DNA of 64,000 nucleotides from Minisyncoccota bacterium (lineage in GTDB: Bacteria; Patescibacteriota; Minisyncoccia; Phycocordibacterales; UBA5272). Shown here piece by piece: positions 26,447-43,582 of this stretch (positions are counted from its first letter, which is position 1; each line of letters begins with the position of its first letter). The notes beneath the pieces were generated by a model. That model searched no databases. It was not told where the DNA came from and saw only the letters and a program-made list of their open reading frames with translations. Position numbers and translations under genes: made by a program. Location: NCBI GenBank assembly GCA_018062965.1, contig JAGORG010000001.1:71488-135487 (forward strand). Reading direction: 5' to 3'.

Positions 26447-26462
26447 GATGTTCTCCTCTGTG

Positions 26463-26518
26463 TTGTGAATGAACTGAATCTTTACAAATCCTCAAATGAA
26501 TTTGAGAACTTGATAAAG
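26463..26518. repeat. Repeat module R1 (GTTGTGAATGAAC...palindrome...TTGATAAAG) directly 5' of the 26446 gene start, followed by hairpin ggacaag-N9-cttgtcc
   Basis: One of 7 related copies. Internal inverted repeat TCCTCAAAT/TTTGAGAAC. Confidence 0.7.
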
Positions 26519-26733
26519 AGGACAAGGTAAGGAATCTTGTCCATGATGGAGGTTTCACAAACTTGCTGGCTGCAAGCTGTACAGAAACCCTTTCCCTAAG
26601 AAGATTGCCAATCATCTTCTCACCCATCTTTTCACATGCAGTAAAATGCCCTGCTTATGGTGCTCTTTCTAGCTTGGCCTTGTGCTGACCTGTCCTCGTA
26701 AGGACACCAAAATGAAGATTCTCTATGCACGAT

Positions 26734-26794
26734 TTGTGAATGAACTATTTCTCTACAAGTTCTCAAATGTTTTTTACTTGAGAACTTGATAAAG
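26734..26794. repeat. Repeat module R2 (5'-degenerate) with perfect palindrome AAGTTCTCAA-N11-TTGAGAACTT; followed by hairpin ggagaatgt...acattctcc
   Basis: No intact gene immediately downstream on the minus strand; possibly an orphan copy. Confidence 0.65.
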
Positions 26795-27042
26795 AGGAGA
26801 ATGTTCTGATCACGTGACCAGCTAACCACATTCTCCATTGCATCAATCACGCTTGAGCCGGCGGGTAGTTTCTGCGTATCTACCAGGTATGAGCAGTTGA
26901 GAGCATCTTTAGTCTTTCATGCATACTCTCTCGCAGTAGTTCTTCTTTGCCATTACAGCATCGAAGTAACTGTGCGTGGCGTTATTCGCCCTCCCCATTT
27001 ATTTATTCCACGCTGTCAGACTGGGGTTCAGCGTGTGCCAGT

Positions 27043-27393
27043 TCATGGTTTCGGGAACTTGCTTGGGTAGTTGGTGCAGCCAGTGTATCGTCCGCTTCCT
27101 TCCACCGTTCTCCATTTTCCGTTGACCAGGGTTTCCACTGTCCACCAATAGGACATGGGCCCCCATCCCATTTTTTTGTTGAATGAGAACATGAACAGCT
27201 TCCGTCCATCCGGTTCGACCTTGATGTCGTAGACACCTTTGAAGGAGTATTGGAGTCTGGGGTCGTCCTGATGAATGGTGAGATACGGGCGATCAAAACC
27301 ATATTCCATCTCTTTGTCTCCCAATGCCTCGATCTCCTCCCTGAAGTCGACCGGATTGAAACCCATTTCTACCAGCTTATTCGTGAGCGTCAT
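27043..27393 (-). CDS. Hypothetical protein (116 aa), GC-rich, divergent from TrmB-like regulator 1
   Basis: About 50% GC. No recognised motif. Confidence 0.5.
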   Translation of the reverse strand: MTLTNKLVEMGFNPVDFREEIEALGDKEMEYGFDRPYLTIHQDDPRLQYSFKGVYDIKVEPDGRKLFMFSFNKKMGWGPMSYWWTVETLVNGKWRTVEGSGRYTGCTNYPSKFPKP

Positions 27394-27607
27394 CTCTATC
27401 TCCTCAATGTGCTTTCGAATCGCCTTTGGCTTGTGCCAGTAGTGTGCTTCGAATCTGGTACCAGAATATCACGACTATACTTGACAGTAAAAAGTTAGAT
27501 TGTATTAAATTATATTTGTCGTAATAGTTATATATTTAAAGGACATTATTGTGCTCCAATATGTCGGGAAAACTTTACAAAATGTATGAAATGTGTATAC
27601 TTGAGGT

Positions 27608-28411
27608 ATGGAACTACGTAAAAACCTTTCAATTTTAGATCTTTCACGTAAGGAAGAAAAAGTGCTTTTGGCTATTATCGAAGGCTGTAGAACCCCTCTT
27701 TCTATATCAAACGAGACTAAAGTGACTCGTCCAGCTGTGTACGACATACTTCTTAAGCTAAAAAAGCGTGGATTGGTGCAGTCTAAAATAAAGGAAGGTA
27801 AAAAATCGTGGCATATCGTAGACCAACGTGAGCTTGCATCTTCTTTGTATGAAACAAAGAAAGTCTTACTCGGATTAAGTGATGGACGAGAAGAAGTGGT
27901 TGGGGTGGATGACAGCCTTATTGTGCTTCATAAAGGAAAGGAAGCGGTGAACAAAATACTTCATGAGATATTTCAATCTCGCCATCATGAACGATTCTTA
28001 GGCTTAACCGGCACCTCTCCTATTTCGGACTGGATGACCGTTATGAATGTAGACGGCATAGGCATAATCAATAGAACTATAAAGAAAAACAGTCTCATTA
28101 CCGAACTCGTTGCACCCGAGAAGTGGGTAGAAGAGCACTTTAAGGCTATGGGAAAAGAGTGGGCGGCTGACTACGAAGGTCGAACAGCATCCACTGTATA
28201 CATTGAGAAAAAATATTTTGATCACGGGGCACAGATGTTTGGTTTTAAAGACGCTTTATATCTCCTGGCGCTCGGTGATCAGCTCATTATAGAAATCCGT
28301 CACAGCGCTATTCAGAAAATGATACTTTCTATGTATGCGTTTATGAAAGATCACGGAGAGAAGATTGATGCAAATAGACTGTTACGTGAATTGATGGAAA
28401 AAGAATCTTAA
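27608..28411 (+). CDS. TrmB-family-like HTH transcriptional regulator (paralog 1)
   Basis: N-terminal pattern L..EEKVLLAIIEG..TPLSISNETKVTRPAVYDILLKLKKRGLV resembles the TrmB winged HTH. 267 aa, like the other two paralogs. Confidence 0.6.
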   Translation: MELRKNLSILDLSRKEEKVLLAIIEGCRTPLSISNETKVTRPAVYDILLKLKKRGLVQSKIKEGKKSWHIVDQRELASSLYETKKVLLGLSDGREEVVGVDDSLIVLHKGKEAVNKILHEIFQSRHHERFLGLTGTSPISDWMTVMNVDGIGIINRTIKKNSLITELVAPEKWVEEHFKAMGKEWAADYEGRTASTVYIEKKYFDHGAQMFGFKDALYLLALGDQLIIEIRHSAIQKMILSMYAFMKDHGEKIDANRLLRELMEKES

Positions 28412-28418
28412 GCAATAC

Positions 28419-28450
28419 AAAACCGGCATCGTAGATGCCGGTTTTTGTAT
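28419..28450. terminator. Bidirectional terminator
   Basis: aaaaccggcatc-gta-gatgccggtttt. Confidence 0.65.
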
Positions 28451-28487
28451 GTACTGTTGATTATAAACTATCAACCATTGACTATAT

Positions 28488-28835
28488 CTAGTGCTTTGTG
28501 TCGCAACGAATTGCAAGCATGATACCACCGATGATAGCGATATTTTTGAGAGCTGCAACGAGTTCAGTTACCTTGAAGTGAACAAGAAGTGTTGCAATCA
28601 CAGTAAACGCGATAAGTGTCCACCCAGTTTCTTTTACTTTGTATCCCCAAGCAAAAGCAAGTGCCACTGGTACTTCCACGATAATAACGAGAAGCGCAGC
28701 AAGTGTTGCTAGAGGCACATTAAGAGAATCTACAAACCCTACAGTTCCAGTAAAGTCCATAGCCTTCTGAACCCCTGCAACTACAAAGAGTAGAGCGATA
28801 AGTGAACGAGCAATCATTCCGTAATGTTTTGACAT
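28488..28835 (-). CDS. DoxX-family membrane protein
   Basis: LIALLFVVAGVQKAMDF...VEVPVALAFAWGYK is DoxX-like. Start placed at MSKHYGM rather than the ORF-track Met. Confidence 0.7.
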   Translation of the reverse strand: MSKHYGMIARSLIALLFVVAGVQKAMDFTGTVGFVDSLNVPLATLAALLVIIVEVPVALAFAWGYKVKETGWTLIAFTVIATLLVHFKVTELVAALKNIAIIGGIMLAIRCDTKH

Positions 28836-28923
28836 AAAAACGTAGAGTATAAAATACTTATAATAGCGGTGTCGCACAGTGTGCAACCCTACGCCCTCTA
28901 GTATAGCTCTTCTTCTAGCTGTA

Positions 28924-29619
28924 TTACCAGGTGGTAGCGAGTATAGATGTTAATGCAGCAACTGCGGCCGTGTCTGCTTTTAGTGTAGTTTCTGTTAATC
29001 GTAGAGATACAAAGCCTTTTTCGGCAAAAGCCCCCTCTTCCTCCTCTGTCCATCCGCCTTCAGGTCCAATCCACAGGGCGCATGTTGATATATCTGACAC
29101 AGTGTGGGTTTGTGCGCGCAAACTGGCAACAATATTCACCAACCCGCTTGTTTTTTGAAGGGCCTCATCAAATGTACAGATAGCTTCAATGATGGGTACT
29201 GTCCCCCGCCCTGATTGCTCAGCAGCTTCTGTGACGATAGCCTGCAAACGTTCCATATTAAGGTTTTTCTTTTCACTTCGCGCTGAAAGTATAGGTACTA
29301 TAGATGTAACACCAAGCTCGGTCGCCTGACGAGCAATAGTTTCAAAGGTATCTTTTTTAACAACCGCCATAACAAGAGTTATGTTAGAAGATGGAATGAT
29401 ATGTGGCTGTGTCGTTACTTGAGAGAGCGTAACTGATGTTTTTGTGTGTGAGGAAATACGATACACACTGTCTTCTCCCGCTATGTGTGGGGAAAACAAC
29501 ATAACCTCGTCACCTACTGTATATCTAAAAACATGTATCCACTGATGCACCAATTTTTTTTCCACTACAACAATCTCTTCACCAAGGGGTTTGTTTATGT
29601 AGAAGCGATGTAATCGCAT
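28924..29619 (-). CDS. rsmE: 16S rRNA (uracil1498-N3)-methyltransferase RsmE
   Basis: MRLHRFYI...GDEVMLF N-terminal PUA-like region and C-terminal SPOUT ...IGPEGGWTEEE. Confidence 0.85.
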   Translation of the reverse strand: MRLHRFYINKPLGEEIVVVEKKLVHQWIHVFRYTVGDEVMLFSPHIAGEDSVYRISSHTKTSVTLSQVTTQPHIIPSSNITLVMAVVKKDTFETIARQATELGVTSIVPILSARSEKKNLNMERLQAIVTEAAEQSGRGTVPIIEAICTFDEALQKTSGLVNIVASLRAQTHTVSDISTCALWIGPEGGWTEEEEGAFAEKGFVSLRLTETTLKADTAAVAALTSILATTW

Positions 29620-30110
29620 TACTCACTACACTACGAGTATCAAAGAGACATTGCAAGAGTGTAGAAAAGACAATCTTTATAAAGACAAATACAAACCTAT
29701 CTATATAAAAGACAGTTATCCACAGGTAAGGGCTTGCATATAAAAGACATATAAAATACAATTATGAGGTAGGTAAATGACGTTGAAATAAACCCTCCCC
29801 TGTTTAAGGGGTCACACAGATTTCTAACGACTCTTTACCCAGTATGTTCTTTCAAAAAGCGGTTCATAAAAATCATCATTCGATTGCCGCACACTCAATA
29901 CCATAGTTCGCTCTTTTATTAAGTTACCCAGGTTGTAGATAACCCATGTAGCTCAAAACTCTCGAAAATCCCCTGTATTCTGGCTGCGAAGCACCGCTTC
30001 GTATCCAGATCGCAGGGGATTTTTTTATTGTAGACCTCATATTTCATATACAAACAAATAAAAAACCGAGCGCCGTAGCGCCCGGTTGGGTTGTTGAGGG
30101 GCTAGTCCCC

Positions 30111-31352
30111 TCACTTTTTCTTTCTTTGCTGGCCCTTGCTTTTGTTCAGGTGGTTCAAAACAGCCTGATCAATGACTGCTTGGCTTGCGCCTGCTGCCTT
30201 GAGAGCCGCAGCGAGATCGGCAACGGCTTTTAATTCGCCTTGCATGAGCGCCAATTCAGTTTCAAGCCTTTTTCTTTCAGCTTCTGATCGTATTTCCTGA
30301 CGTTTTGCCTTGGCTTCCTCGATTTGTTTTTCGAGGTCTTCTTTGGTCTTCTTGGCTGGAGGGTACTTCTTGGTAAACCAATACATAATCCCACCAATTG
30401 CAAGCAAGACCGCACCCGACAAACCGATCAGAAGAGGGTATCCTAATAGACCGATTTTGTAGAGTATGAAGCTTACAAGGAACAGGCATACACCTGCAGT
30501 TGCAGCCCCTTTGGCGTAGCTCCCTGATTGTTTGTACACATGATAGCTTGCAAGGCCTACCAAAAATGCACAACCTGTCAGTATGAGCATGAGTCCGGCT
30601 TCGACCTCGTCGTATGCGAGCATGCCGCCAACAACAACCAGGATACAAGCTACCGAAACGGGCCCAAGCTTACTCAAGGCCTCGCCGACCGCAGCCTTGT
30701 TCTTGTGAGCAAAAAAACATGCAATAGCTGCAAGGATCAAGCACGCAAAGAGCGTAATGCTTTTGCTGGCAAACAGAAGAGCTGCCACAATGAGTCCACC
30801 ACCCCAGAAAATCAAGGGTTTTTGCTCGGCATGCCTGGCGACAGCTTCGCCCTGAGCTTTTGCCCAAGGTGTGGCCGTGTCCCAGGCGGCGTTTGCCCAT
30901 TTTCCTGCCGTTTCCTGCGCCTTTTCGGCTCGGTCTCGCCAGGAACTGTTGCTACCACCTTGCGGCGGCTGAGTCCCTGAGGACGTTTCGCCGTTTTTCG
31001 GGGTCACATCATCGACACTGTCAACATTCACAAACTTTCCATCGACAAAGACCCTTTTGGGGCGACTTGTGTTGGAAGATCTGGTTGTTTGTCCGCCGGA
31101 AGCAAAACTCTCTTTGATTTCCCTCCCCACCTGACGAACCTTGTTCATCAGTATGTTCACGATTGGAAACGGGAGGACTCCTGTGATAAGCAGGGCACAC
31201 GCAAGTGTTGTATCAGTTCTGCGATACATCAAGAATTGATGTATGACATAGTCAGCAACCGTATAGGTTGCAAACCAGATAGCTGCGATAGCGAGACAGA
31301 GGAGCGCAATGTGCCCCACCTTTTTCAAAATGGTTTCCATGAGGATCTCCAA
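30111..31352 (-). CDS. Polytopic hypothetical membrane protein with C-terminal coiled-coil tail, GC-rich (about 55%)
   Basis: Multiple TM segments. C-terminus EDLEKQIEEAKAKRQEIRSEAERKRLETELALMQGELKAV. Composition differs from neighbours. Confidence 0.6.
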   Translation of the reverse strand: MEILMETILKKVGHIALLCLAIAAIWFATYTVADYVIHQFLMYRRTDTTLACALLITGVLPFPIVNILMNKVRQVGREIKESFASGGQTTRSSNTSRPKRVFVDGKFVNVDSVDDVTPKNGETSSGTQPPQGGSNSSWRDRAEKAQETAGKWANAAWDTATPWAKAQGEAVARHAEQKPLIFWGGGLIVAALLFASKSITLFACLILAAIACFFAHKNKAAVGEALSKLGPVSVACILVVVGGMLAYDEVEAGLMLILTGCAFLVGLASYHVYKQSGSYAKGAATAGVCLFLVSFILYKIGLLGYPLLIGLSGAVLLAIGGIMYWFTKKYPPAKKTKEDLEKQIEEAKAKRQEIRSEAERKRLETELALMQGELKAVADLAAALKAAGASQAVIDQAVLNHLNKSKGQQRKKK

Positions 31353-31575
31353 AGGTTAAATTCAATGTTCATTATGATATAAGCATCTCTGCTCGTATCA
31401 CGGCTACTTATACTTATATAACAAAAACATACTTTTGTCAATCGTTTCACCTCAAGCATTTAATGGTATAGTGCGAATATCCAGTACGACAGAAACTCAG
31501 TATTGCTCAGTATTTTTAAAGAATTTTGTATTTGAATGTGTATTACTAGTGACTACTAATTATTGACTATCAACT

Positions 31576-32160
31576 ATGCTGATTCCAACTGTTATTGAAA
31601 AAAGCCAATTTGGCGAACGCGCCTTTGATATTTATTCACGCCTCCTCAAAGAGCGTATTATCTTTTTGAGTGATGAGGTTAATCATCACACAGCTTCTGT
31701 TGTTATTGCACAGATGCTTTTTCTTGAGTCTGAAGATCCGAAAAAGGATATTACGCTCTACATCAACTCCCCTGGTGGTGAAATCCAGTCAGGTTTGGCT
31801 ATTATCGACACTATGCACCACATCAAACCAGATGTTTCTACAGTGTGTATCGGCATGGCAGCTTCTATGGGTGCGATGATACTCTCGCAAGGTACAAAAG
31901 GTAAGCGATTTGTGCTTCCAAACGGCGAAGTGATGATTCATCAGCCACTTTCTGGTGTTGAAGGTCAGGCTTCTGATATTGAAATAAAAGCAAAACACAT
32001 CCTTAAAATTAAGGAAAAGTTGTATGCAATGCTTGCGGATGCAACAGGTAAAACAAAAGCCCAAGTTGAAAAAGATGGTGACCGTGACTATTGGATGAGT
32101 GCTGACGAAGCAAAGAAGTACGGTATCGTTGACCAGGTTCTAAAACCAAAGACAAAATAA
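31576..32160 (+). CDS. clpP: ATP-dependent Clp protease proteolytic subunit
   Basis: INSPGG...[11 protein letters not shown]...HQP are the catalytic-triad contexts. Confidence 0.95.
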
Positions 32161-32191
32161 TCCCATCCCCTAGGGATCCCATAACCTACGT

Positions 32192-33685
32192 ATGGAAAAG
32201 CTCATCATAGAAGCAGGACTCATAGCCGGCGGAGTTGGCGCTTTGGTTGGTTTCTTTGCGCGTGACTATTACGCAAAGATAAAAACAGGTAATGCAGAAC
32301 AAAAAGCAGATAGTATTTTGCTTGAAGCAAAAAAGGAGGCTCATAAAATAGAAGAAGAAGCCCTCACTCGTGCGCAAACGATACGTAGTGAGCTTGAAAA
32401 AAGCGAAGACAGGCTACAAAAACAAGAAGAGCGTATTGATAAACGCGAACAAGAGGTCGCGCGTGATCTCGAAACGCTACGAACTAAGTCCAAAGAACTA
32501 GAAACTCTTCAGGACGCTCTTGATGCACAAGAAAAAGACACAGTTCGTGCCCGCGAAGCTCTTGCAGGGATTACTCAGGAACAAGCACGTCACATGTTGT
32601 TTGAAAAAATAACTCGTGAATCTGAAGAAGACTTGAAATCTAGAATGCTCAAACTCTCTCGAGATGGAGAAGAACGCTTTATGGAGCAAGCGCGAGATAT
32701 GTTGGTAAACAACGTCTACCGTATTGCAAATGCAAACGTTTCTTCGTTTACAACGAGCACTGTTGAGATTGCAGATGAAGAGGTAAAAGGCAAAATCATC
32801 GGGAAAGAAGGACGTAATATCAAAACCTTTGAACGTCTTGCAGGTGTTGAATTGCTTGTCGATGAACATCCACAAGCAATAGTTGTATCGTGTTTTGATC
32901 CAGTTCGCCGTGCGATTGCAAAGAACGCACTCGAAATGCTCATCAAAGACGGTCGTATTCAGCCGATCAAAATAGAAGAGTATATCGAGAAAGCAAAAAA
33001 AGATATCGGTGTATTTATGAAAAAGAAAGGAGAAGAAGCAGTACTTGCGTGTGGGCTTCTTTCTATTCCAGAACCACTGATCCCTCTTATTGGTCGGCTG
33101 TATTTCCGAACAAGTTATGGACAAAATGTTCTTGATCACTCAGTTGAGATGGCACACATCGCAGGCATGCTTGCACAAGAGCTCGGTGCAGATGTGCAAG
33201 TAGCAAAAGCTGGAGCGCTTTTGCATGATATCGGAAAAGCCGTTGACCATGAGATTCAAGGTACACATGTTGAAATCGGTAGAAAGATTTTGGCAAAGTA
33301 TGGCGTGGATGAACGGGTGATACTTGCTATGCAGGCGCATCATGAAGAGTATCCATATGAAACTATCGAATCAGTGCTTGTGCAGGTTGCAGACGCAGTA
33401 AGTGGTGGACGCCCTGGCGCACGTCGAGATACTGTTGATAGGTATATTACTCGCCTTTCTGATTTAGAAGCCATTGCACTCGCATTTTCAGGCATTGAGC
33501 GTGTGTATGCACTACAAGCTGGGCGAGAAATACGTGTATTTGTTACTCCTACCCTTGTATCTGACATGCAGGCACGGGATTTGGCGCGTCAGATCGCACT
33601 TCGTATCGAACAGGAGCTTAGATATCCAGGTGAAATAAAAATAAATGTTATACGTGAGAGCCGAACGATAGAGTTTGCAAGATAA
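32192..33685 (+). CDS. rny: Ribonuclease Y
   Basis: N-terminal TM, coiled coil, KH GKIIGKEGRNIKTFERLAGV, and HD domain LLHDIGKA. Confidence 0.9.
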   Translation: MEKLIIEAGLIAGGVGALVGFFARDYYAKIKTGNAEQKADSILLEAKKEAHKIEEEALTRAQTIRSELEKSEDRLQKQEERIDKREQEVARDLETLRTKSKELETLQDALDAQEKDTVRAREALAGITQEQARHMLFEKITRESEEDLKSRMLKLSRDGEERFMEQARDMLVNNVYRIANANVSSFTTSTVEIADEEVKGKIIGKEGRNIKTFERLAGVELLVDEHPQAIVVSCFDPVRRAIAKNALEMLIKDGRIQPIKIEEYIEKAKKDIGVFMKKKGEEAVLACGLLSIPEPLIPLIGRLYFRTSYGQNVLDHSVEMAHIAGMLAQELGADVQVAKAGALLHDIGKAVDHEIQGTHVEIGRKILAKYGVDERVILAMQAHHEEYPYETIESVLVQVADAVSGGRPGARRDTVDRYITRLSDLEAIALAFSGIERVYALQAGREIRVFVTPTLVSDMQARDLARQIALRIEQELRYPGEIKINVIRESRTIEFAR

Positions 33686-33721
33686 AACAAGAAGCGCGCC
33701 CGTCGGGCGCGCTTCTTGTTT
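33684..33721 (+). terminator. Intrinsic terminator after rny
   Basis: aagaagcgcgcccg-tc-gggcgcgcttctt plus T-run. Confidence 0.7.
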
Positions 33722-33906
33722 AGACAATAGCATCTACATGTTGGTTTTGACTTTTCCACACGGTGTTGTATTATGACTTGCCAAAAAACCCAAGGAGTAT
33801 ATACTTTTTATAGCCATCACAAAGCATTCTTGCTTTGCGGTGTGAATTACAAACATCTTATCAATGTCGTGGTCCTAGGAAAACACGATATTACATTCAC
33901 AACTAT

Positions 33907-34179
33907 ATGAACAAAGTAGGCCTCGTTGAAGCAGTACACGCAGTTCTCGGTGGTACAAAGGTACAAGCTGAAGCTGTCGTAGATACAGTTTTCGATTCAA
34001 TCGTTAAGACTCTTAAGAAGGGTGACGAAGTTGCAATCGCCGGTTTCGGTAAGTTCGTAGCAAAGAAGCGTGCAGCACGCGATGCTCGTAACCCAAAGAC
34101 AGGTGAAACTGTAAAGGTTCCAGCAACAACAGTTCCAAAGTTCTCAGCCGCAAAGGCACTTAAGGATGCAGTTAAGTAA
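33907..34179 (+). CDS. hup: DNA-binding protein HU
   Basis: MNKVGLVEAV...GFGKF...RNPKTGE matches HU. Start is the internal Met of the 33835 ORF. Confidence 0.9.
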   Translation: MNKVGLVEAVHAVLGGTKVQAEAVVDTVFDSIVKTLKKGDEVAIAGFGKFVAKKRAARDARNPKTGETVKVPATTVPKFSAAKALKDAVK

Positions 34180-34226
34180 TTAACGCCATTCTCAATCAAA
34201 AACCCGCCACATGGCGGGTTTTTGAT

Positions 34227-34598: not shown

Positions 34599-34751
34599 AT
34601 ATACAAAGTATATCTCATACTTTTGTAAAGTTGTAGGATCTGTTCAAGTACAACACGGCTGACTCATTACAGGCATGAACCGCTCCAGGTGATACATCTT
34701 CAGAATTTGAAATCCCCCAGAGAAATAATCTGGGGGATTTCAAATATTTTG

Positions 34752-34822
34752 TGCGGCGTAAGGGAATCGAACCCTTGTCCCCTGCTTGGAAGGCAGGTAT
34801 TCTACCACTAAACCAACACCGC
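34752..34822 (-). tRNA. tRNA-Gly (anticodon TCC)
   Basis: Cloverleaf folded by hand: acceptor GCGGTGT/ACGCCGC, anticodon loop CTTCCAA, T-arm GGGTTCGATTCCC. Confidence 0.85.
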
Positions 34823-34861
34823 GATAGAAGTCATTCTACTATATCTCGCTATATTTTTCCA

Positions 34862-35098
34862 CTACCTTACTTTAGTGAACCGCCCAACTGATTCCCCTGC
34901 TTCGTCGGTTAGTTTTTCTACAAAGTCCTCAAGAGGTCTGCACCAAAGTTTTTCATCGGTGAGTGCTTTGTATATAACGCATTCTTTCATGTCGAGATCT
35001 TCATGTTTCACCTGCATCTGCCCAATTCCAAGAATTTCATACTCCCCTTTGGTTTTATAATGCTGCCACACTTCCCCTGTTTTTGGTTTGCTTTCCAT
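34862..35098 (-). CDS. DUF1653-like small protein
   Basis: MESKPKTGEVWQHYKTKGEYEI...WCRPLEDF. The upstream extension in the ORF track overlaps tRNA-Pro and is rejected. Confidence 0.55.
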   Translation of the reverse strand: MESKPKTGEVWQHYKTKGEYEILGIGQMQVKHEDLDMKECVIYKALTDEKLWCRPLEDFVEKLTDEAGESVGRFTKVR

Positions 35099-35177
35099 AT
35101 ATACATAGCATACATGCAAAATCTTAAAAATGTGATAGGATATATACACGTTTCTTACGTATCGGAGTATGTAATAT

Positions 35178-35250
35178 CGGAGTGTGGTGTAACGGCTAAC
35201 ATCCTCGCTTTGGGAGCGAGTGACTCCGGGTTCGAATCCCGGCACTCCGA
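35178..35250 (+). tRNA. tRNA-Pro (anticodon TGG)
   Basis: Acceptor CGGAGTG/CACTCCG, anticodon loop TTTGGGA, T-arm CCGGGTTCGAATCCCGG. Confidence 0.85.
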
Positions 35251-35425
35251 CAAGTATATAAAGCACCCTTTGTGGGTGTTTTATATTTGTCGGGTGCAGC
35301 ACATGAACTGCTTCATGTGCGTCGGGATTCGAAAGCCGCAGCTATATTTTGCTAGCAAGCAAAATAGCGAGGAGTGGCTGATTAGTAAATCATGCCGTGA
35401 GGCCAAAGCGAGTCCTGGCAACTAA

Positions 35426-35455
35426 CAAAACCTCGTTTCATACGAGGTTTTGCTT
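35426..35455. terminator. Bidirectional terminator
   Basis: aacctcgtttcatacgaggtt hairpin with A/T flanks. Confidence 0.6.
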
Positions 35456-35844
35456 TACTCTTTATGTATATTCTCTAAAAGCTTCACTTTCCCCTCTTTT
35501 CGTAGCGGGTTGATGTATACACAAGCCAGATCTATACACCACAGTGTTTCATGTGGAACGTTTCGGTGCTTGAGATAGGTTTGAGCGCTTATGACGATTC
35601 TAGACCACTTTTTTGCTGTTAGGTTATCTTCTGGCTGAATAGCAAGATTGGCTATATCAGCAAAATCTTTGACTTTTACACTTTTAACCTCAACAAAATG
35701 CAAAGTCTGTCCTTTTTTAGCAACGATGTCTATTTCGCCGTACCGAGTAGGATAGTTTATTTCAATAATAGAAAAACCCTGTTTCATAAGAAACGCTTTT
35801 GCTATTTTCTCACCTATTTTGCCTATTTCATTGTGTTCAGCCAT
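35455..35844 (-). CDS. YraN/UPF0102-family endonuclease-like protein
   Basis: GEIDIVAKKGQTLHFVEVKS is the UPF0102 signature. Confidence 0.7.
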   Translation of the reverse strand: MAEHNEIGKIGEKIAKAFLMKQGFSIIEINYPTRYGEIDIVAKKGQTLHFVEVKSVKVKDFADIANLAIQPEDNLTAKKWSRIVISAQTYLKHRNVPHETLWCIDLACVYINPLRKEGKVKLLENIHKE

Positions 35845-36233
35845 GTATTTGATACCAGAAACGGTTTCATGTGGAACGTTTCAAATGTAAAAAGGTATTT
35901 GTTTCACGTGAAACGTTTTGTCTTATTGTCTGTACTTAACCTTTATAAAACGTCAGAGACTTCTGTAAAAGCTATATGTATCAATGCTATTTTACAATTA
36001 AGGGCAGGGGTCGTACAGTTTGCCCTCTACGTACTTTACTGTCTCTTATCCCCCATACACACAGGTTTATCCCCAGTTTTGCAAAAAATGCTTGAAAATA
36101 AAAGATTTTAGAGTGATTCAAGTATGTGTATATCTAAGACATGCAAACAACGGCGTCTTATTGTGTCCGAAAAGGGGTATATCATCTTTTAAACTGGATA
36201 TCTCTATGATAGAATAATCGAGTAAATATAGAT

Positions 36234-36304
36234 GCGGTGTTGGTTTAGTGGTAGAACACGACCTTGCCAAGGTTGAGACAGGAGTTCGATTCTCCTACGC
36301 CGCA
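36234..36304 (+). tRNA. tRNA-Gly (anticodon GCC)
   Basis: Acceptor GCGGTGT/ACGCCGC, anticodon loop TTGCCAA, T-arm GGAGTTCGATTCTCC. Confidence 0.85.
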
Positions 36305-36700
36305 CAGGAATTCAATAAAGACAAAGGCTTTATTTGTGTGTAGGAGAATCGAACTCCGAAGGTGTCTATATTTTAAAGGAGATAAGCGACTATTAAAATA
36401 AGACACTTCGAGCTGGTAACCCAGCGAGAAGATGAGAGATTCTTAGCCGTATCCGTTACACGAGAAACGTTAAGAGGGGGTCCGCCAGGATTTTCTCCCA
36501 CAAATACATTTTTGTCGTCACAAAAATGTTTCACGGTCCGCTCCTCACTGTTTTTCTTGCTAGAAAAACCCTAAAGGACTGCGGTTTCAAAAGATTGACT
36601 ACAATCTAAGAAACCGGGAGCATGTTCCGGACTTTCGAATCCTGACGCATCACACGCAGGTGTGATGCTGCGGAAGCACAATACATGCTTCGCAATATTG

Positions 36701-36772
36701 TGCTTCCGCCAGGATTCGAACCTGGAACGACGGTTCCGAAGACCGGAGTGATATCCATTTCACCACGGAAGC
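36701..36772 (-). tRNA. tRNA-Arg (anticodon TCG)
   Basis: Acceptor GCTTCCG/CGGAAGC, D-arm GTGA/TCAC, anticodon loop CTTCGGA, T-arm CCAGGTTCGAATCCTGG. One C-U mismatch closing the anticodon stem. Confidence 0.8.
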
Positions 36773-36802
36773 TTGTAGAGTAAGGTTATACTAACATAAA
36801 CC

Positions 36803-38323: not shown

Positions 38324-38388
38324 AAGACATTCAAAGGTTGAACATTGTCCTTTATAAGAGACAAAGTTGTTTCTGATATACTTTCCTC

Positions 38389-40305
38389 ATGAACTTCTCT
38401 TTGGATGATCTCCATCCACTTACATTTTCGCTTCTCAAAAAAAGGGGAGTAGAGGAAAAAGATATGATGGATTTTTTGAATCCTTCATACGAAAAGCATA
38501 TAGGGGATCCGTTTGGGATATATGGGATGGATAAGGCGGTTAGTCGTATCGTAAATGCGATTCGAAACGGTGAAAAGATTTGCGTATACAGCGATTACGA
38601 TTGCGACGGGATTCCGGGTGGGGTGCTCTTGCGAGAATTCTTTGATGGTATTGGGTACCCGGTAGATATGTATGTGCCACATCGCCACAACGAAGGGTAT
38701 GGTGTGCATATTCATGCGATAGACGCGCTTAAAGCAAAAGGGGTTACGCTTATCATCACTGTTGATTCAGGAATTACCAATATCGAAGAAGTTGCGTATG
38801 CAAAAACTGTAGGTGTTGACTTTGTTGTTACTGATCACCATTTACCAATTCATGAAGAAGGGAAGGGTCAAGTGGTCCCTGATGCTGTTGCAGTGCTTAA
38901 TTCAAAACAAGATCTCTGCACGTATCATGATGATATGTTGTGTGGTTGTGCGGTCGCATGGAAACTTGCGTGTGCGATTCTGATGAGGTTGCGTGAATTG
39001 CAAGTACGCGAAACTACGGGTTTAGATGGCACGCATACATTTTCTGCTGAAAATGTTACTCACTTTCAGCTGCCCGCTTCCGAGAGTCCATCTAAACCCG
39101 TAGTTTCGCTAGAAAATGTGATTGATATTGTTTCAAAACTTCCTGTCGGCTGGGAAAAGTGGATGCTTGATCTCGTTGGTATTTCTACTATTGCGGACAT
39201 GGTGCCACTTCAAAAAGAAAACCGCGCACTTGCTCACTATGGACTTAAGGTTTTAAGAAAAACAAAGCGCCCGGGACTTTTACATATTTTTAACGAACAG
39301 CGCATGCGAAAGGATTATCTAACCGAGGATGATATCGCGTTTACTATTGCACCCCGCATCAATGCTGCGTCTCGTATGGGCACACCGATTCAAGCGCATC
39401 ATATGTTATATGAACGTAACTCTGCGAAAGCTGAAAGCTACGCCCGAGACCTTGAGCTTTTAAACACAGAACGCAAAGCCGGAGTGAAGGATATTATTTC
39501 TACACTTTCGTTTGATCATGCGGTCTACCAAAATGATGTGATCGTAGTAGGGGATATGAGTTGGGGGCCGGGAATACTTGGACTCATCGCTCAAAACATC
39601 ATTGATGAAACAGGAAAGCCTACATTTGTATGGGGTCGAGGCGGAGCCGAGAGTTCTGAGCCTGTCGAAGAACCAAGGTCGAGGAGCGATGAGCGACGAA
39701 GAGTTCCGCAGTCAGCAGACGAAGGAACACCAGAGGTTGCCGCTAAAAAAAGTAACAACGAAGCGGTTATAAAAGGGTCATGTAGATCTCTCGGAGATGT
39801 GCATGTCGTAGAACTCATGGCGCGCGTGGGACATGACGTTCTTACTCATTGGGGTGGGCACGAAGGGGCTGGCGGATTTGCTCTCACTGTAGAAAATGTT
39901 CCACGATTGTCGGATGCATTAAATGAAGCTGTGAAGCATGTGGTGATACAAGAAATAGGGAGCCAAGAGATTGCAATTGACGCAGATTTACAGATGGACG
40001 ATGTGCACGATGTTACCTACAAAGCGATTGAGCCGCTCGCGCCATTTGGAGAGGCGAACCCAAAGCCTATATTTAGTTTTGGAAATGTAACACCACTAGC
40101 CACTAAACGATTCGGAAAGAAAAATGAGCATTTAGAAATTATTTATCCGACGACCAAAGGCGGAAAAGTAAAAGCCATCCAGTTTTTTACTAAAAGTGAA
40201 ACAGAAGAAAAAGCTGTAAAGCCCCACACACTTCTCGCTCATCTTGAAAAGAGTTACTTTGCAGGAAAGACAGAGCTGCGGTTGAGGATTGTAGACATTC
40301 GCTAA
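38389..40305 (+). CDS. recJ: Single-stranded-DNA-specific exonuclease RecJ
   Basis: DHH motifs VYSDYDCDGI...ITVDSG...TDHH, DHHA1 region, and a low-complexity insert around 39640-39760. Confidence 0.9.
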   Translation: MNFSLDDLHPLTFSLLKKRGVEEKDMMDFLNPSYEKHIGDPFGIYGMDKAVSRIVNAIRNGEKICVYSDYDCDGIPGGVLLREFFDGIGYPVDMYVPHRHNEGYGVHIHAIDALKAKGVTLIITVDSGITNIEEVAYAKTVGVDFVVTDHHLPIHEEGKGQVVPDAVAVLNSKQDLCTYHDDMLCGCAVAWKLACAILMRLRELQVRETTGLDGTHTFSAENVTHFQLPASESPSKPVVSLENVIDIVSKLPVGWEKWMLDLVGISTIADMVPLQKENRALAHYGLKVLRKTKRPGLLHIFNEQRMRKDYLTEDDIAFTIAPRINAASRMGTPIQAHHMLYERNSAKAESYARDLELLNTERKAGVKDIISTLSFDHAVYQNDVIVVGDMSWGPGILGLIAQNIIDETGKPTFVWGRGGAESSEPVEEPRSRSDERRRVPQSADEGTPEVAAKKSNNEAVIKGSCRSLGDVHVVELMARVGHDVLTHWGGHEGAGGFALTVENVPRLSDALNEAVKHVVIQEIGSQEIAIDADLQMDDVHDVTYKAIEPLAPFGEANPKPIFSFGNVTPLATKRFGKKNEHLEIIYPTTKGGKVKAIQFFTKSETEEKAVKPHTLLAHLEKSYFAGKTELRLRIVDIR

Positions 40306-40372
40306 GTTTTAAATAAAAAGAAACTGCACGTTGATGTGCAGTTCGGCCGAACTGGTTTCAGGAGTAGTGATT

Positions 40373-40651
40373 TCACCAAACCCACACACTAGTCTCACAC
40401 TCTAAACATGGCTCACTAAGAGTTCCGTTTACAGCCGGTTCAGCAGAAACCTTCCACCGCTCACCTTGCTTTTTCATGAGTTCAAAGTCTTCAGAGTTGA
40501 TAACTCCCTTGAGAATCAGTGCCCTCTCTACTCGGTCACGAGAGAAGATGGCAAAATCTCGCTGGTTTCGAACATAGAGATCTGCCATCTCATGAGTAGA
40601 CTCTCCTGTGAAAACATCAATCACGAAATAATTTATCATCTTCGTTTTCAT
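40373..40651 (-). CDS. Hypothetical small protein (92 aa), last gene of the module-2 array
   Basis: Preceded by repeat module R3 plus an SD. C-terminal CLECETS. Confidence 0.4.
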   Translation of the reverse strand: MKTKMINYFVIDVFTGESTHEMADLYVRNQRDFAIFSRDRVERALILKGVINSEDFELMKKQGERWKVSAEPAVNGTLSEPCLECETSVWVW

Positions 40652-40667
40652 TTTCTCTACTCTCCGG

Positions 40668-40735
40668 GTTGTGAATGAACTAAACTTTAAAGATTTACGA
40701 TATCATAATCATAAACCTTATAAAGTGGGCGATGT
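40668..40735. repeat. Repeat module R3 (variant spacer), followed by hairpin gggcgatgtgtttcaatcgccc
   Basis: Shares the 5' GTTGTGAATGAAC and 3' CTTATAAAG ends. The hairpin is near-identical to the one after R7. Confidence 0.65.
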
Positions 40736-40755
40736 GTTTCAATCGCCCGATCCCA

Positions 40756-41025
40756 TTAACGGGAAAGTTTGCCGCAGGCCACGCCTGCCTCGAAGAGCTT
40801 TTGGAGAAGTGCTTCGAGTGGAACCTTTCCGGTCTTGCTGGCTTCGATTGCAAGAGTGCCGATAGCCGCCAAGGCCTGGATACCAGAGTCCTTGCTTGCA
40901 AGTGGTATAAAGGCGACAACTTTTTCATCACCTTCCTTGCAGTCCCTCTCCACGTCTCTACGGCTGCCGTAATCAAAGTTGAGAGCGTGCGAGCCATCCT
41001 TCGATTGTGTTACTTGTATGTGCAC
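40756..41025 (-). CDS. Hypothetical small protein (89 aa, GTG start), GC-rich (about 55%)
   Basis: Preceded by R4 with aagggaa-N7-GTG. Overlapping alternative ORFs on both strands make the frame choice uncertain. Confidence 0.4.
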   Translation of the reverse strand: MHIQVTQSKDGSHALNFDYGSRRDVERDCKEGDEKVVAFIPLASKDSGIQALAAIGTLAIEASKTGKVPLEALLQKLFEAGVACGKLSR

Positions 41026-41041
41026 GGATATTTCCCTTCAA

Positions 41042-41098
41042 GTTGTGAATGAACTGAATCTTTACAAATCCTCAAACGAATTTGAGAACTTGATAAAG
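41042..41098. repeat. Repeat module R4, followed by hairpin gctgaagagtaacgtccttcagc
   Basis: Near-identical to R1 over 57 nt. Confidence 0.7.
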
Positions 41099-41290
41099 TG
41101 CTGAAGAGTAACGTCCTTCAGCATGACGGCGATTTCCTGACTAGGATCACGTTCCCCGAGCCTATTTTGGGATTACTGCAAAATATCAGTAGTTGTCCCA
41201 GCCACCACGCTCGAAACCGTATTCCTCAAGGAGTTTTATTGTCCTCTTGTTTCCGGTCATCAACTTTCGGTCGATCGGTGGCTCATGTTC

Positions 41291-41332
41291 TTTGAAGGTT
41301 CTCAAATATTGCTACTTAAGAACCTTATAAAG
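41291..41332. repeat. Repeat module R5 (3' half only), followed by hairpin gctgaagagtgacgtccttcagc
   Basis: Contains the palindrome half-sites GTTCTCAAAT...CTTAAGAAC and CTTATAAAG. The hairpin is near-identical to the one after R4. Confidence 0.55.
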
Positions 41333-41395
41333 TGCTGAAGAGTGACGTCCTTCAGCGTGACGGTGATTATTGAGAGGGATCACATTCCCCCAAGC

Positions 41396-41827
41396 CTACT
41401 TCGCAACCACCGCGAAATGCCAGAAGGCACCCCAGTCACCGCCCCAGCCCCAGAAGCCCATTTCCCGTTCTCCGTCAGCGTAGCTCCACAGTGCGGGGAC
41501 GCTGCCGTAGGAACGGCAGACTGGGTCTGGTGCAACGATGTGGCACTTCCTCTGCACCTCGGGGTAATTCACTCCAAAGAGCAGAAGTTCCGGGAGTGTC
41601 GCGCAACGCAGACCCTGGCGCGCGAGCTCCCCCACCACATTTTCGGAGCGGATGAGGTGTCCGAATTGATGTAGATAGGGCATTGCCACCTCACCACTAC
41701 CTTCGATCGAGTGGTTCCTTTCGGCAAACAGCTTGAGTATTATGTCTGCGTTGTTATACTTTCCAGCGAGGATCATCTCTTTCGCAGACATGTTGTAGTT
41801 GAACTGAATCATTTGAGCTTGTTCCAT
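41396..41827 (-). CDS. Hypothetical protein (143 aa), GC-rich (about 58%), paralog of 43583..44014, divergent from TrmB-like regulator 2
   Basis: Shares MEQAQ.I.F.YNM..KEMI...ATLPELLLF with the paralog. Otherwise unrecognised. Confidence 0.6.
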   Translation of the reverse strand: MEQAQMIQFNYNMSAKEMILAGKYNNADIILKLFAERNHSIEGSGEVAMPYLHQFGHLIRSENVVGELARQGLRCATLPELLLFGVNYPEVQRKCHIVAPDPVCRSYGSVPALWSYADGEREMGFWGWGGDWGAFWHFAVVAK

Positions 41828-41982
41828 TTTGAATCTCCAATCAATGTGCTTAGTTCAGAACACCTGAACTTTCTGATAACATTATGCCATTTTAAAACAC
41901 ATCTGTCAATATAAAGATGACAGTATTATATTACAAAAAGTATTGCAAATTATGAGTAATATGATATAGTGTAATATATATT
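41828..41982. promoter_or_regulatory. Divergent promoter region with two palindromes (AGTTCAGAACACCTGAACT and CTGTCA-N9-TGACAG)
   Basis: Inverted repeats at 41851-41869 and 41902-41922, between divergent start codons. Confidence 0.4.
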
Positions 41983-42786
41983 ATGACAGTTAAAAATGAA
42001 GCGTTGCTTACAAATGAGGAAAATAGCTTAGAAAATGCTCGAAAGATGCTTCTTTCATTTGGTCTTTCAGACAGTGAATCCAAGGTTTATATCTATTTAT
42101 TAGAGCGCGGAGGGGAAATCGGAGGGTCAAAGATAGCAATTGGGGCGAAGCTGCATAGACAATATGTGTATTTGGCGCTTCCGCATCTGATGCAGTTGGG
42201 ACTAGTTGAGGAAATTCCTCATGGAAAGCTCAGTAAATACAAAGCAAATGCTCCGACTGAGATAGAAAAGATTGCAAAGAAGCGAGTTGTTGAAGCAGAA
42301 GATCTCGTAAAGGAGTTACAGAAGTTTTCAAAAGTAGGACATGAGCAAGACTTTGAAGTCTATGTTGGGGACACGGCAATACAGAAATACGAGGTTAATT
42401 GGGTAAAAGGTGTCAAGGATCACGAAGAGCAGTATATTATCGGAGGAAATACGAAAGGCTTTACCGAAATGATGGGGGATGCACTTGATGAGTATTTGGT
42501 AACTGAGTCTAGAAAGAAAATAACAACGTATTATCTGGGACACACAAGCGAACGGGGATTGTGGTCAGATACGCTTCTGGCGCAGAATGATTTGCGTGCT
42601 AAGTTTTTAGATACTTTACCACTTGGCGTGTCCCACTTTGTTGTACGAAAAGGGCATGTTGCATTCTTTACGTTTCTTAAGCCATCACTTTTGTATGTGA
42701 TCAAATCCGAAGCAGTATCAGAAAACTACAAGCAATTCTTCATGATGTTGTGGGAGATGGCGAGCGACTCGGTCGCGAAGATGTGA
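41983..42786 (+). CDS. TrmB-family-like HTH transcriptional regulator (paralog 2)
   Basis: LLSFGLSDSESKVYIYLLERGGEIGGSKIAIGAKLHRQYVYLALPHLMQLGLVEEI is TrmB-type wHTH. C-terminus FFMMLWEMA is shared with paralog 3. Confidence 0.65.
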   Translation: MTVKNEALLTNEENSLENARKMLLSFGLSDSESKVYIYLLERGGEIGGSKIAIGAKLHRQYVYLALPHLMQLGLVEEIPHGKLSKYKANAPTEIEKIAKKRVVEAEDLVKELQKFSKVGHEQDFEVYVGDTAIQKYEVNWVKGVKDHEEQYIIGGNTKGFTEMMGDALDEYLVTESRKKITTYYLGHTSERGLWSDTLLAQNDLRAKFLDTLPLGVSHFVVRKGHVAFFTFLKPSLLYVIKSEAVSENYKQFFMMLWEMASDSVAKM

Positions 42787-42893
42787 ATCAGCAGATTCAT
42801 GGCTTGGCCGCAAGGAGACAGTAGTCCTAGGACGCAAGGGGATTAATTTAAAAAGAAAACCGCACATTGCTGTGTGGTTTTTTGCTGTGAAGC

Positions 42894-43097
42894 TCACAGT
42901 CTGTTTGGGCTCATTTGACCCGCACGGTACAGAAAGTACCCGTGCACAAGGATTAGTATTCCGTAGAACGCCAATCCTGCGACCAGTGTCAGATGGTCGA
43001 AGCCCTCAGAGTGAATGAAGGGCGGATAATACTGCAAGCCGTATCCAAGAAATACGAGTACGGCGATGCTGTAGAGTGCGAGCAGAATGCGAGACAT
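42894..43097 (-). CDS. Small 2-TM membrane peptide (67 aa), copy 2
   Basis: Start reassigned to MSRILL with SD ggaggaatacc-ATG. About 90% nt identity to 26243..26446 including the 3' flank. Confidence 0.65.
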   Translation of the reverse strand: MSRILLALYSIAVLVFLGYGLQYYPPFIHSEGFDHLTLVAGLAFYGILILVHGYFLYRAGQMSPNRL

Positions 43098-43113
43098 GGT
43101 ATTCCTCCGGTAG

Positions 43114-43172
43114 TTGTGAATGAACAATCTCTACAAATCCTCAAATATTTCTAGTTGAGAACTTGATAAAGA
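43114..43172. repeat. Repeat module R6, followed by hairpin cctcgacatgtgtcgagg
   Basis: GTTGTGAATGAAC...TTGATAAAG. Directly 5' of the SD of the 43097 gene. Confidence 0.7.
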
Positions 43173-43456
43173 CCTCGACATGTGTCGAGGGTGCTTGTCA
43201 TTGAACCCGAGGATCTACCGTTTAGGTTGATCGACGAGGTCTAACATTGCCTATCAAGCGGCAACGCTTGCAACCATTCAGTCACAAGAAGTGTTACATG
43301 CTCTGATTCTTCAGTTCAGATTTTCAGCACGTTTTGAGTACTTTCTTACTCGAATACATGTACCGTTAAGTTCCCATTCGTTCGGAGTTTCATTGTCCGG
43401 GGTTGTTAACTGCGACCGGTAGAGCCGACCATCTTTTGCAAGTGGATTTCTTTTTC

Positions 43457-43512
43457 GTTAGTGAACAATCTCTACAAGTTCTCAAATATTTCTACTTGAG
43501 AACTTGATAAAG
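43457..43512. repeat. Repeat module R7 (5' end degenerate), perfect palindrome CAAGTTCTCAA-N11-TTGAGAACTTG, followed by hairpin ggcgatatgtttcaatcgcc
   Basis: No intact ORF immediately downstream on the minus strand. Confidence 0.65.
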
Positions 43513-43582
43513 TAGGCGATATGTTTCAATCGCCCGGTTGAGTCCGACTTATATTCCGCGTGGACTAGAGTGCGGGTGTTGT

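Follow-up and report, generated by a model that had tools for sequence, protein, structure and literature searches.

Repeated modules at two TrmB-linked loci

The DNA analyzed here is a 64,000-nucleotide (nt) stretch of contig JAGORG010000001.1 from a Minisyncoccota bacterium, referred to as a whole as the window, in which two loci adjoining TrmB-family regulator genes carry seven copies of a two-hairpin module (R1 to R7) set among small genes. A sequence-only reading had taken these modules for a promoter-operator cassette; the interpretation favored here, with moderate confidence, is that they are cis-acting RNA elements of the sense transcript that serve as mRNA punctuation, and not DNA promoters or operators. 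The window has a GC content of ~43%, and its genes include those for NusA, pyrophosphatase, trigger factor, ClpP, RNase Y, HU, RecJ, and a CCA-adding enzyme; NCBI labels the homologs of its TrmB-like proteins as Patescibacteria.

On the minus strand, which is the sense strand of the array genes and to which the coordinates of the modules and of the other array parts refer, the unit reads as follows: a GC-rich hairpin (H1); 0–2 nt; an AU-rich hairpin (H2; CUUUAUMARG...loop...CUUGUARAG); a tail, AUU(CA)GUUCAUUCACAAC; ~8 nt; and a Shine-Dalgarno (SD) sequence with its start codon. Copies were sought by pattern search, MAFFT, nhmmer, and a covariance model with filters off. Related loci were drawn from contigs of close relatives of the product of the first array gene, X (L003–L012), from a metagenome scan using a TrmB alignment (L013–L022), and from look-ups of TrmB homologs (L023–L026). 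Structure was assessed on 25 distinct copies from the window and 12 related metagenome contigs (19 distinct copies in an earlier MAFFT set), folding energies on 21 folded copies, and H1 on 27 modules.

The window contains exactly seven copies, all on the gene-sense strand, with covariance-model scores of 42.8–75.2 bits; nhmmer and the patterns agree, confirming that the seven repeats described earlier are real. The exact pattern AAGTTCTCAA-N9-13-TTGAGAACTT occurs twice, compared with no occurrence in 100 shuffles. At locus A, R1 (26462–26519; 75.2 bits in cmsearch) has an H2 of type A followed by the tail GUUCAUUCACAAC, and lies 15 nt 5′ of the ATG of a gene for a membrane protein of 67 amino acids (aa), while R2 (26733–26795), also of type A, has a perfect 10-bp core repeat. 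At the second locus, R3 (40668–40726) is of type B, with another stem sequence in the same structure, and lies 16 nt 5′ of the ATG of a 92-aa gene; R4 (41042–41099; type A) lies 16 nt 5′ of the GTG of an 89-aa gene; R5 (41275–41333) is a partial copy (42.8 bits, 18-bp hairpin) that has a variant stem with compensating changes and lacks the conserved tail; R6 (43113–43172; type A) lies 15 nt 5′ of the ATG of a paralog of the 67-aa membrane protein gene; and R7 (43454–43513; type A) has a perfect core repeat and a degenerate tail. Five copies had been placed just before an SD sequence and start codon, which holds for R1, R3, R4, and R6 at 15–16 nt; the ATG downstream of R5 lacks an SD sequence and its open reading frame (ORF) is truncated. 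As stated in the same reading, no intact ORF follows R2 or R7.

The copies are spaced at 271, 374, 249, 341 nt and more, with ORFs between them, and no family of clustered regularly interspaced short palindromic repeats (CRISPR) reached the Rfam threshold, in keeping with the earlier statement that this is not a CRISPR array. Against Rfam 15, only tRNAs in the window reached the gathering score, and no family overlapped any module at E values up to 5. The confinement of the modules to TrmB-like loci was also upheld, as the neighboring genes carry the Pfam TrmB domain and the rest of the window has no copy. In the related loci, every module lies on the strand of the operon divergent from the TrmB gene, just 5′ of a gene, and ~100 kb of flanking DNA contained no module outside the TrmB operons. 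Close relatives of X (143 aa) form only three clusters among 5.8 billion proteins. An exact-pattern scan of 185,579 GTDB species genomes, representatives that evidently include neither the source genome nor close relatives, found no true module. Its sole match, in a Parafilimonas metagenome-assembled genome, was judged to be chance, as the hairpin context is absent. Viral contigs (IMG/VR) and phage records contained no module (15 loose-pattern matches all scored ≤22 bits with the covariance model, and blastn returned nothing); these searches gave no sign of a phage origin.

Structure and strand specificity of H2

Each module had been described as carrying a conserved 10-bp inverted repeat, operator-like for a dimeric regulator. 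As DNA, the perfect repeat is confined to R2 and R7. The plus strand of R1, R4, and R6 reads AATCCTCAA...TTGAGAACTT, and these copies pair in full only as sense-strand RNA through G.U pairs; R3 has another palindrome in the same place, and R5 represents a third variant. The flanking GATAAAG and CTYTAC also pair, lengthening the palindrome to a helix of 17–19 bp. Folded with RNAfold, H2 in the seven window copies is an AU-rich helix of that length with a loop of 4–7 nt (15–19 bp over the 21 folded copies), in which an outer CUUUA pairs with UARAG, followed by one bulged U and an inner helix of 12–13 bp, the conserved base being CUUUA-U-CAAG...CUUG-UARAG. The arms that look degenerate as DNA pair fully as RNA (AAGUUCUCAA with UUGAGGAUUU, via G.U), and type B (R3) places GGUUUAUGAU with AUCGUAAAUC in the same columns.

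The covariance analysis that had been suggested as a check for a structured RNA was carried out, and the data favor RNA. In the MAFFT alignment of 19 distinct copies, 97.8% of the cells pair, compared with 26–60% when the partners are slid, and double changes occur in six pairs. In the model-based alignment of 25 distinct copies, 97.5% pair, double changes occur in seven of 13 pairs, and the covariation score exceeds those of all 500 shuffles. RNAalifold, applied independently to the 25 copies, returned the same helix with 14 pairs, of which eight change in a compensatory manner (C-G to A-U at columns 8/40 among them), and U7 as the conserved bulge. The independent changes, which include U-A to C-G, A-U to G-C, and an inserted G-C pair, come from stem types A, B, and R5 and from the distant loci L017, L018, L019, L021, and L024, whose TrmB genes are 46–74% identical; in the second module of L025, an inserted base closes the bulge.

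Each hairpin contains one to three G.U pairs; on the opposite strand, A.C mismatches would stand in their place. The mean minimum free energy is −16.7 kcal/mol for the sense strand versus −9.4 kcal/mol for the antisense strand, with sense favored in 20 of 21 copies (for R1, which folds into 18 bp with two G.U pairs, −16.8 versus −9.0 kcal/mol), and covariance-model scores are 43–75 bits for sense but do not exceed 18.5 for antisense. Covariation, G.U pairs, folding energies, and model scores thus fit a structure formed by the single-stranded sense strand rather than a double-stranded operator: the element is strand-asymmetric, unlike a symmetric operator, which would be equivalent on both strands. 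The structured-RNA alternative is well supported, and the modules look like a previously undescribed two-hairpin RNA motif set between small genes that vary among strains.

Because the unpaired tail, AUU..GUUCAUUCACAAC, follows the helix base in the window and the nearest relatives, the base stands ~31–34 nt 5′ of the start codon there. A third hairpin within the tail was considered; it occurs only in L012b and L019 and is not conserved.

The variable hairpin H1

H1 is a stem-loop of 6–15 bp with 4–7 G-C pairs that lies 0–2 nt before H2 in all 27 modules. Its position is thus fixed, while its stems fall into at least 10 unrelated sequences and H1 types combine freely with H2 types. The GC-rich hairpin reported earlier beside every copy is accordingly present, and the near-identical pairs are real: the H1 of R3 (40727–40748; GGGCGAU...AUCGCCC) and that of R7 (43515–43534) form repeat family D14, and those of R4 (41100–41122; GCUGAAGG...CUUCAGC) and R5 (41334–41356) form family D3. 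The H1 of R1 (26520–26542; GGACAAG...CUUGUCC) lies 1 nt from H2; that of R2 (26796–26836) is a 15-bp stem, GGAGAAUGU...ACAUUCUCC, of a type also found in L012 and L024; and that of R6 (43173–43190) is CCUCGAC...GUCGAGG followed by UCUUUAUCAA.

On its 3′ side, H1 is followed by a short U-rich stretch, (A/U)CUUUAU, with 4–5 U in 8 nt, which doubles as the 5′ base of H2. The terminators that close the arrays have U tracts far longer than that of H1; strong intrinsic terminators were found by the terminator scan at 26204–26229, the end of the locus A array, and at 40321–40344, where an array ends with a long U tract.

A conserved 3′ untranslated region (UTR) element of ~40 nt, CCGCACTCTAGTCCACGCGGAATATAAGTCGGACTCAACC, itself a small hairpin, was observed at 43541–43582 in the window and also in L005, L011, L012, L022, and L024. 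It trails unrelated genes and precedes either H1 or, in the cargo-less L022, a strong terminator.

Two related arrangements bear on the nature of H1. In L022, behind this same 3′UTR element, the strong terminator occupies the H1 position, and the L014 operon ends in an H1 followed by CUUUUAUCAAG, with H2 absent. H1 is therefore read as a weakened internal terminator or a 3′-end hairpin. The earlier suggestion that the GC hairpins end upstream transcripts is plausible solely as leaky termination, and termination would be at most partial because genes continue downstream without a recognizable promoter.

Promoters and TrmB-family regulators

A sigma-70 scan of the minus strand, for −35 and −10 hexamers spaced 16–18 nt apart, found no match in any module or between cargo genes. 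In contrast, near-consensus promoters (10–11 of 12 matching positions) lie 5′ of the first gene in two of the three operons, namely those headed by the two X genes: TTGACA-17-CATAAT at 41881–41909 and TTGACA-17-TACAAT at 44070–44098. At locus A, no minus-strand sigma-70-like site was flagged. Among the relatives, L018 has TTGACA-17-CATAAT ~30 nt upstream of H1-H2, L017 has a match ~110 nt upstream of H2, and L025 has one ~250 nt upstream of H1; these matches combine a TTGACA −35 box, across a 17-nt spacer, with a −10 of CATAAT, TATTGT, or GATACT, and their distances to the module span ~30–280 nt. The position of the promoter upstream of the module in these three loci places the module within the leader of the first gene. 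The bases of the module that could serve as a −10 element (TARAGA) covary with the CUUUAU 5′ arm, appearing as UAGGGG, UUGAGG, or CAAAGG in relatives; in L018, ACCUUA is matched with UAGGGG.

All three operons are divergent from TrmB-family genes on the plus strand, at 27608–28411 (locus A; Pfam PF01978, E = 4.8e-08), 41983–42786, and 44182–44976 (PF01978, E = 6e-12). The product of the second of these, which has a Pfam TrmB domain, was modeled with a predicted local distance difference test score (pLDDT) of 86 and matches TrmBL2 over its full length (Foldseek E = 1.6e-13). Its fold combines a winged helix with a coiled coil and a PLD-like domain, and the resemblance is to TrmBL2, an archaeal chromatin protein whose C-terminal domain is PLD-like, rather than to the sugar-sensing TrmB. 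PADLOC matches of the TrmB-like proteins were set aside as winged-helix similarity only.

Palindromes CTGTCA-N9-TGACAG and TGTCAA-N8-TTGACA overlap the −35 boxes of the X promoters (41895–41925 and 44085–44112) and are unrelated in sequence to the module. They are better operator candidates for the TrmBL2-like regulators than the module.

Further observations concern these promoters and regulators. The predicted 5′ ends of the X mRNAs share CAGAAAGTTCAGG (41850–41875 and 44040–44066), which also occurs in L018 (~500–520) and L014. It is followed by a 5′-proximal hairpin whose inner part differs between the two (AGUUCAG-guguu-CUGAACU versus AGUUC..GGAA..UUCC..GAACU) and which may act as a 5′ stabilizer. 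On the related 775-kb contig L014 (9435–9842, minus strand), the product of the TrmB-divergent gene is an RNA polymerase alpha C-terminal domain that stands alone (PF03118, E = 2.5e-19), and a regulator gene is unusual in having such a partner.

Array genes and cassette variation

The first gene of the locus A operon (27043–27393) encodes 116 aa, and the last (26243–26446) encodes the 67-aa cargo protein, a two-helix membrane protein as judged by eye and without a Pfam match; its region shares 86% nucleotide identity with 42878–43125, which includes the paralog at 42894–43097. At the second locus, X (41396–41827; 143 aa), a member of a large uncharacterized family, is followed by the ORF of the 89-aa cargo gene (40756–41025) and by the 92-aa cargo gene (40373–40651), which also occurs in L005 and L013 and is truncated in L003. 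The X paralog (43583–44014; 143 aa) is 38% identical to X.

A profile search with X returned 2004 cluster representatives (E up to 0.001), most of them ~190–210 aa long, in which the domain is C-terminal and a GLRPATLPELLLFGA...FAVV motif is conserved. X has no Pfam, NCBIfam, or PADLOC match, its AlphaFold2 model is poor (pLDDT 51), and the profile search points to no function.

In the related loci, cargo comprises 67–180-aa proteins without an assigned function, a 224-aa S-adenosylmethionine methyltransferase, and a 371-aa product whose N terminus includes a hydrophobic stretch, lipoprotein-like by eye. Two chromosomal positions are shared among relatives (RecJ...RNase H and trigger factor...DoxX/RsmE), at which strains differ in cargo and in the number of TrmB/first-gene pairs; gene content varies among L003, L005, L011, L013, and the window. 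Compared with L013, insertions of 594 nt in the window and of 481 nt in L005 are seen, both of which start and end in the 5′ arm of the module, and a 14-nt repeat, CACTTTATAAGGTT, stands at the insertion edges, including those of the 594-nt insertion. Between locus A and L012, the leader up to the ATG is 75% identical and an ORF-less stretch of ~200 nt past the stop codon is 89–91% identical, while the intervening gene or genes are unrelated. This pattern, together with the bounded indels, indicates that the spacers are the stable part and the genes the exchangeable part. The description of the modules as cassette-like units before variable small cargo is thereby borne out, since strains differ by whole module-plus-gene units. 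No recombinase, integrase, or transposase was found among the called genes of the window loci, L003–L012, or L023–L026, a search that covered the regions around the loci.

The ORF-less stretch itself lies at 26837–27043 in the window, 5′ of the H1 of R2, and at 3575–3769 in L012, the preceding genes encoding 116 and 99 aa, respectively. An ORF of 26–29 codons within it is frame-shifted between the two, and the stretch may be a conserved noncoding element or a remnant.

Elsewhere in the window, genes for a 157-aa membrane protein, a 95-aa protein, and, on the opposite strand, a 136-aa membrane paralog are inserted at 50736–53110 between rpsL (S12) and rpsG (S7), which are adjacent in L003; each is followed by the same terminator, AAAAGCGGAACCGAAAGGTTCCGCTTTTGTTTT (51177–51214, 51696–51733, and 52022–52059). 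A 48-nt repeat at 53808–53855 and 54313–54360 (98% identical) contains a terminator-like hairpin, AAACCGCTACTTGTAGCGGTTT, and lies after a 194-aa and a 136-aa gene, which are unrelated. A tRNA cluster at 34751–36772 has its four genes (Gly-TCC, Pro-TGG, Gly-GCC, and Arg-TCG) set among small ORFs, including a UPF0102/YraN-like gene.

Proposed function and alternative explanations

The positions of the promoters and the structure of the modules suggest that the modules lie within the transcript. In the proposed mechanism, each array would be read from one sigma-70 promoter located 5′ of the first gene and divergent from the TrmB/TrmBL2-like gene, and the H1-H2 unit would recur before each further gene and, in some relatives, also in the leader of the first gene. 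H1 with its U-rich flank, (A/U)CUUUAU, could act as a leaky intrinsic terminator and as a 3′ exonuclease barrier for the upstream cistron. H2 would fold in the read-through RNA and provide a site for RNase III-type cleavage and/or a 5′ exonuclease barrier at the edge of the ribosome footprint, so that the mRNA of each cassette could be dosed and stabilized separately; the conserved spacers would at the same time be the joints at which module-plus-gene units are gained or lost between strains. Termination by H1 and cleavage at H2 are both predictions from sequence. RNase III duplexes in Bacillus subtilis span 10–36 bp, a range that covers the length of H2, and RNase Y processing sites can have a stabilizing downstream hairpin (PMC11780869). 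An RNase Y gene is present in the window (32192–33685), and its ortholog in L025 matches Pfam RNase_Y_N. An anti-SD role, in which 3′UTR sequences before H1 (CCCUCUC, CCUCC) would pair with the downstream SD sequence until freed by processing, was rejected on SD accessibility: partition-function calculations for 14 modules with a native, absent, or shuffled flank showed no consistent direction.

Several observations weigh against this punctuation mechanism. The alignment of 25 copies with its 97.5% pairing was fitted to the model, and since many copies were drawn from closely related strains, the cell counts exaggerate how many events are independent. Neither the tail nor its constant spacing from the start codon is conserved in the distant relatives L012a, L017, and L018b, and in L025 the second module directly adjoins the ATG. 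No gene lies downstream of R2 or R7. Of the seven H1 hairpins in the window, just one, that of R6, passed the terminator-like scan, the U tract being short and itself paired in H2. Hairpins that tolerate G.T could equally form in single-stranded DNA (ssDNA) of the same strand, and a weak or noncanonical promoter within the module is conceivable from the sequence.

The promoter-operator cassette of the earlier reading, in which the module would supply a promoter and a double-stranded operator for a dimeric regulator such as a TrmB-like protein while H1 ends the upstream transcript, is now quite unlikely. It would explain the fixed distance to SD sequences and start codons, the presence of modules solely at TrmB-family loci, and the terminator-like character of H1 (one copy passing the scan), and TGTARAGAT loosely resembles an extended −10 element by eye. 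However, no module passes a sigma-70 scan that finds near-consensus promoters only a few hundred bases away, a canonical promoter already stands 5′ of the module in L017, L018, and L025, and the bases that might form a −10 element covary with those of the 5′ arm. As an operator, the module fares no better: the arms of types A and B are wholly different yet complementary, G.U pairs are needed on one strand only, and the palindromes over the real −35 boxes are unrelated to it. A TrmB operator was accordingly rejected, as the palindromes at the true promoters differ and the module arms are not conserved in sequence. Another view holds that the modules are nonfunctional, recently duplicated intergenic DNA homogenized by gene conversion, with an incidental palindrome. 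Several copies are indeed near-identical within the window and between close strains, as this view would predict; yet compensatory pairing is kept where TrmB is only 46–50% identical (L017, L018, L019, and L021), one structure persists across three stem-sequence types, and H1 adjoins H2 in 27 of 27 modules despite its unrelated sequences, making such an origin highly improbable.

Two further explanations accept that the sense strand folds. One places the crossover of an integron-like cassette system that lacks an integrase at the H1/H2 junction, where coding-strand ssDNA hairpins would be recognized by a putative recombinase. Whole-unit strain variation is bounded at the H2 5′ arm, with CACTTTATAAGGTT flanking the 594-nt insertion; H1 and H2 types associate freely; genes are precisely replaced between conserved noncoding flanks (locus A versus L012); an "empty" site, H1 + CTTTTATCAAG, closes the cargo-less L014 operon; and the helix has a bulged base, as in attC. 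Recombination at ssDNA hairpins is nonetheless rather unlikely: no locus has a recombinase among its called genes, the cores depart from RYYYAAC/GTTRRRY, folding occurs on the coding strand, opposite to attC, H1 is too variable for recognition, homologous recombination between 60-nt repeats accounts for the same indels, and neither the 185,579 GTDB species genomes (exact pattern) nor IMG/VR contained copies. Left- and right-end hairpins of IS200/IS605 elements were discarded, as H1 is unlike H2 and hypervariable and TnpA is absent. The other explanation is processive antitermination of the nut, boxA, or put-like kind, in which H1 + CUCUUUAUCAA would load Nus factors or directly modify RNA polymerase, enabling it to pass internal terminators and Rho sites in an operon of small, poorly translated genes. 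The two adjacent stem-loops recall the HK022 put RNA, and CUCUUUAUCAA matches the core of the Escherichia coli rrn boxA, CUCUUUAACAA, at all but one of 11 positions; L018 has UUAACAA. Sites of the rrn and lambda nut kind are similar in that the hairpin comes before boxA and in their location in leaders or between cistrons. Other noncoding arrays, such as CRISPR, are protected from Rho by boxA (PMC7665894). Antitermination is nevertheless improbable: the boxA-like bases are paired in H2, and the pairing is under selection, whereas NusB/NusE bind single-stranded boxA; H1 sequences are unconstrained, and boxA differs between phyla. No rRNA lies in the window or in the related loci retrieved.

A bolder version of the punctuation mechanism would make the H1-H2 spacer the joint of a hitherto unrecognized, integrase-independent cassette system of Patescibacteria, in which units of [H2 + tail + gene + 3′UTR + H1] are captured, deleted, and shuffled at the CACUUUAU junction and the double hairpin serves in the mRNA as a universal expression adaptor under a single TrmBL2-controlled promoter. 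Were this the case, which is unlikely, the same double hairpin would be terminator, processing site, and 5′ stabilizer in one, and any captured gene would be expressed.

Candidate-phyla bacteria have tiny genomes rich in small genes of unknown function, and the control of their expression is barely known. The analysis provides a covariation-supported RNA motif absent from Rfam, with a ready covariance model, and two hot spots at which TrmBL2-like regulators head strain-variable arrays of small genes. If the motif is a processing, termination, or stability signal, it would represent a compact, portable means by which one promoter could express interchangeable cassettes; should it serve as a recombination joint as well, the arrays would constitute a new type of cassette system. 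The results also correct the assumption that an inverted repeat beside a regulator gene is necessarily an operator.

Comparison with known systems

RNase III hairpins, such as the phage T7 early sites R0.3–R1.3 and the rpsO-pnp leader, are likewise stable hairpins of about two turns that lie between cistrons or in leaders, near the next ribosome-binding site, and their cleavage leaves protective stem-loops on the products. At 15–19 bp, H2 is a sufficient double-stranded RNA helix for RNase III, and its promoter context would place it within the transcript. H2 differs in being nearly perfect, with a single bulged U and no internal loop, and in always being preceded by a GC-rich hairpin; cleavage here is putative.

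Intrinsic terminators share with H1 a GC-rich stem-loop and a U-rich stretch, and H1 occupies the position of the strong terminator of cargo-less relatives. In contrast to such terminators, its U tract is short, interrupted, and shared with the 5′ base of H2. The adjacent regulators resemble TrmB and TrmBL2 in their TrmB winged helix and TrmBL2 fold; unlike the operators of such regulators, the module palindrome behaves as an RNA stem and not as a conserved pair of half-sites.

The repetitive extragenic palindromic (REP) sequences and bacterial interspersed mosaic elements of E. coli, the Correia elements of Neisseria, and the enterobacterial repetitive intergenic consensus (ERIC) sequences of Yersinia are also repeated intergenic palindromes; co-transcribed with the genes on either side, they form mRNA structures that affect termination, cleavage by RNases, and the differential stability of adjacent cistrons. 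These families are spread genome-wide in tens to hundreds of copies, and Correia and ERIC resemble miniature inverted-repeat transposable elements with terminal inverted repeats. The modules, in contrast, number seven, in one orientation, at two TrmB-linked loci per ~64 kb, always on the sense strand, in a fixed start-codon register and with one per gene unit, and thus do not behave as a dispersed repeat.

Integron attC arrays similarly consist of small, mostly uncharacterized genes in the same orientation, separated by an imperfect hairpin repeat with an extrahelical base and starting close to it, and differ between strains by whole cassettes; the 594-nt and 481-nt indels bounded by the module are of this kind. 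However, no IntI or other recombinase was found at the loci, the fold is on the coding rather than the bottom strand, a second, variable hairpin is present, the array comes with a regulator and first gene of its own, and the module ends read (A/T)CTTTAT ... GTARAG, not RYYYAAC ... GTTRRRY. In logic, the modules are therefore closest to RNase III sites of the T7 type and to transcribed repeats of the REP/Correia type: they share with integrons the arrangement of one repeat per cassette, while lacking the features that define an integron.

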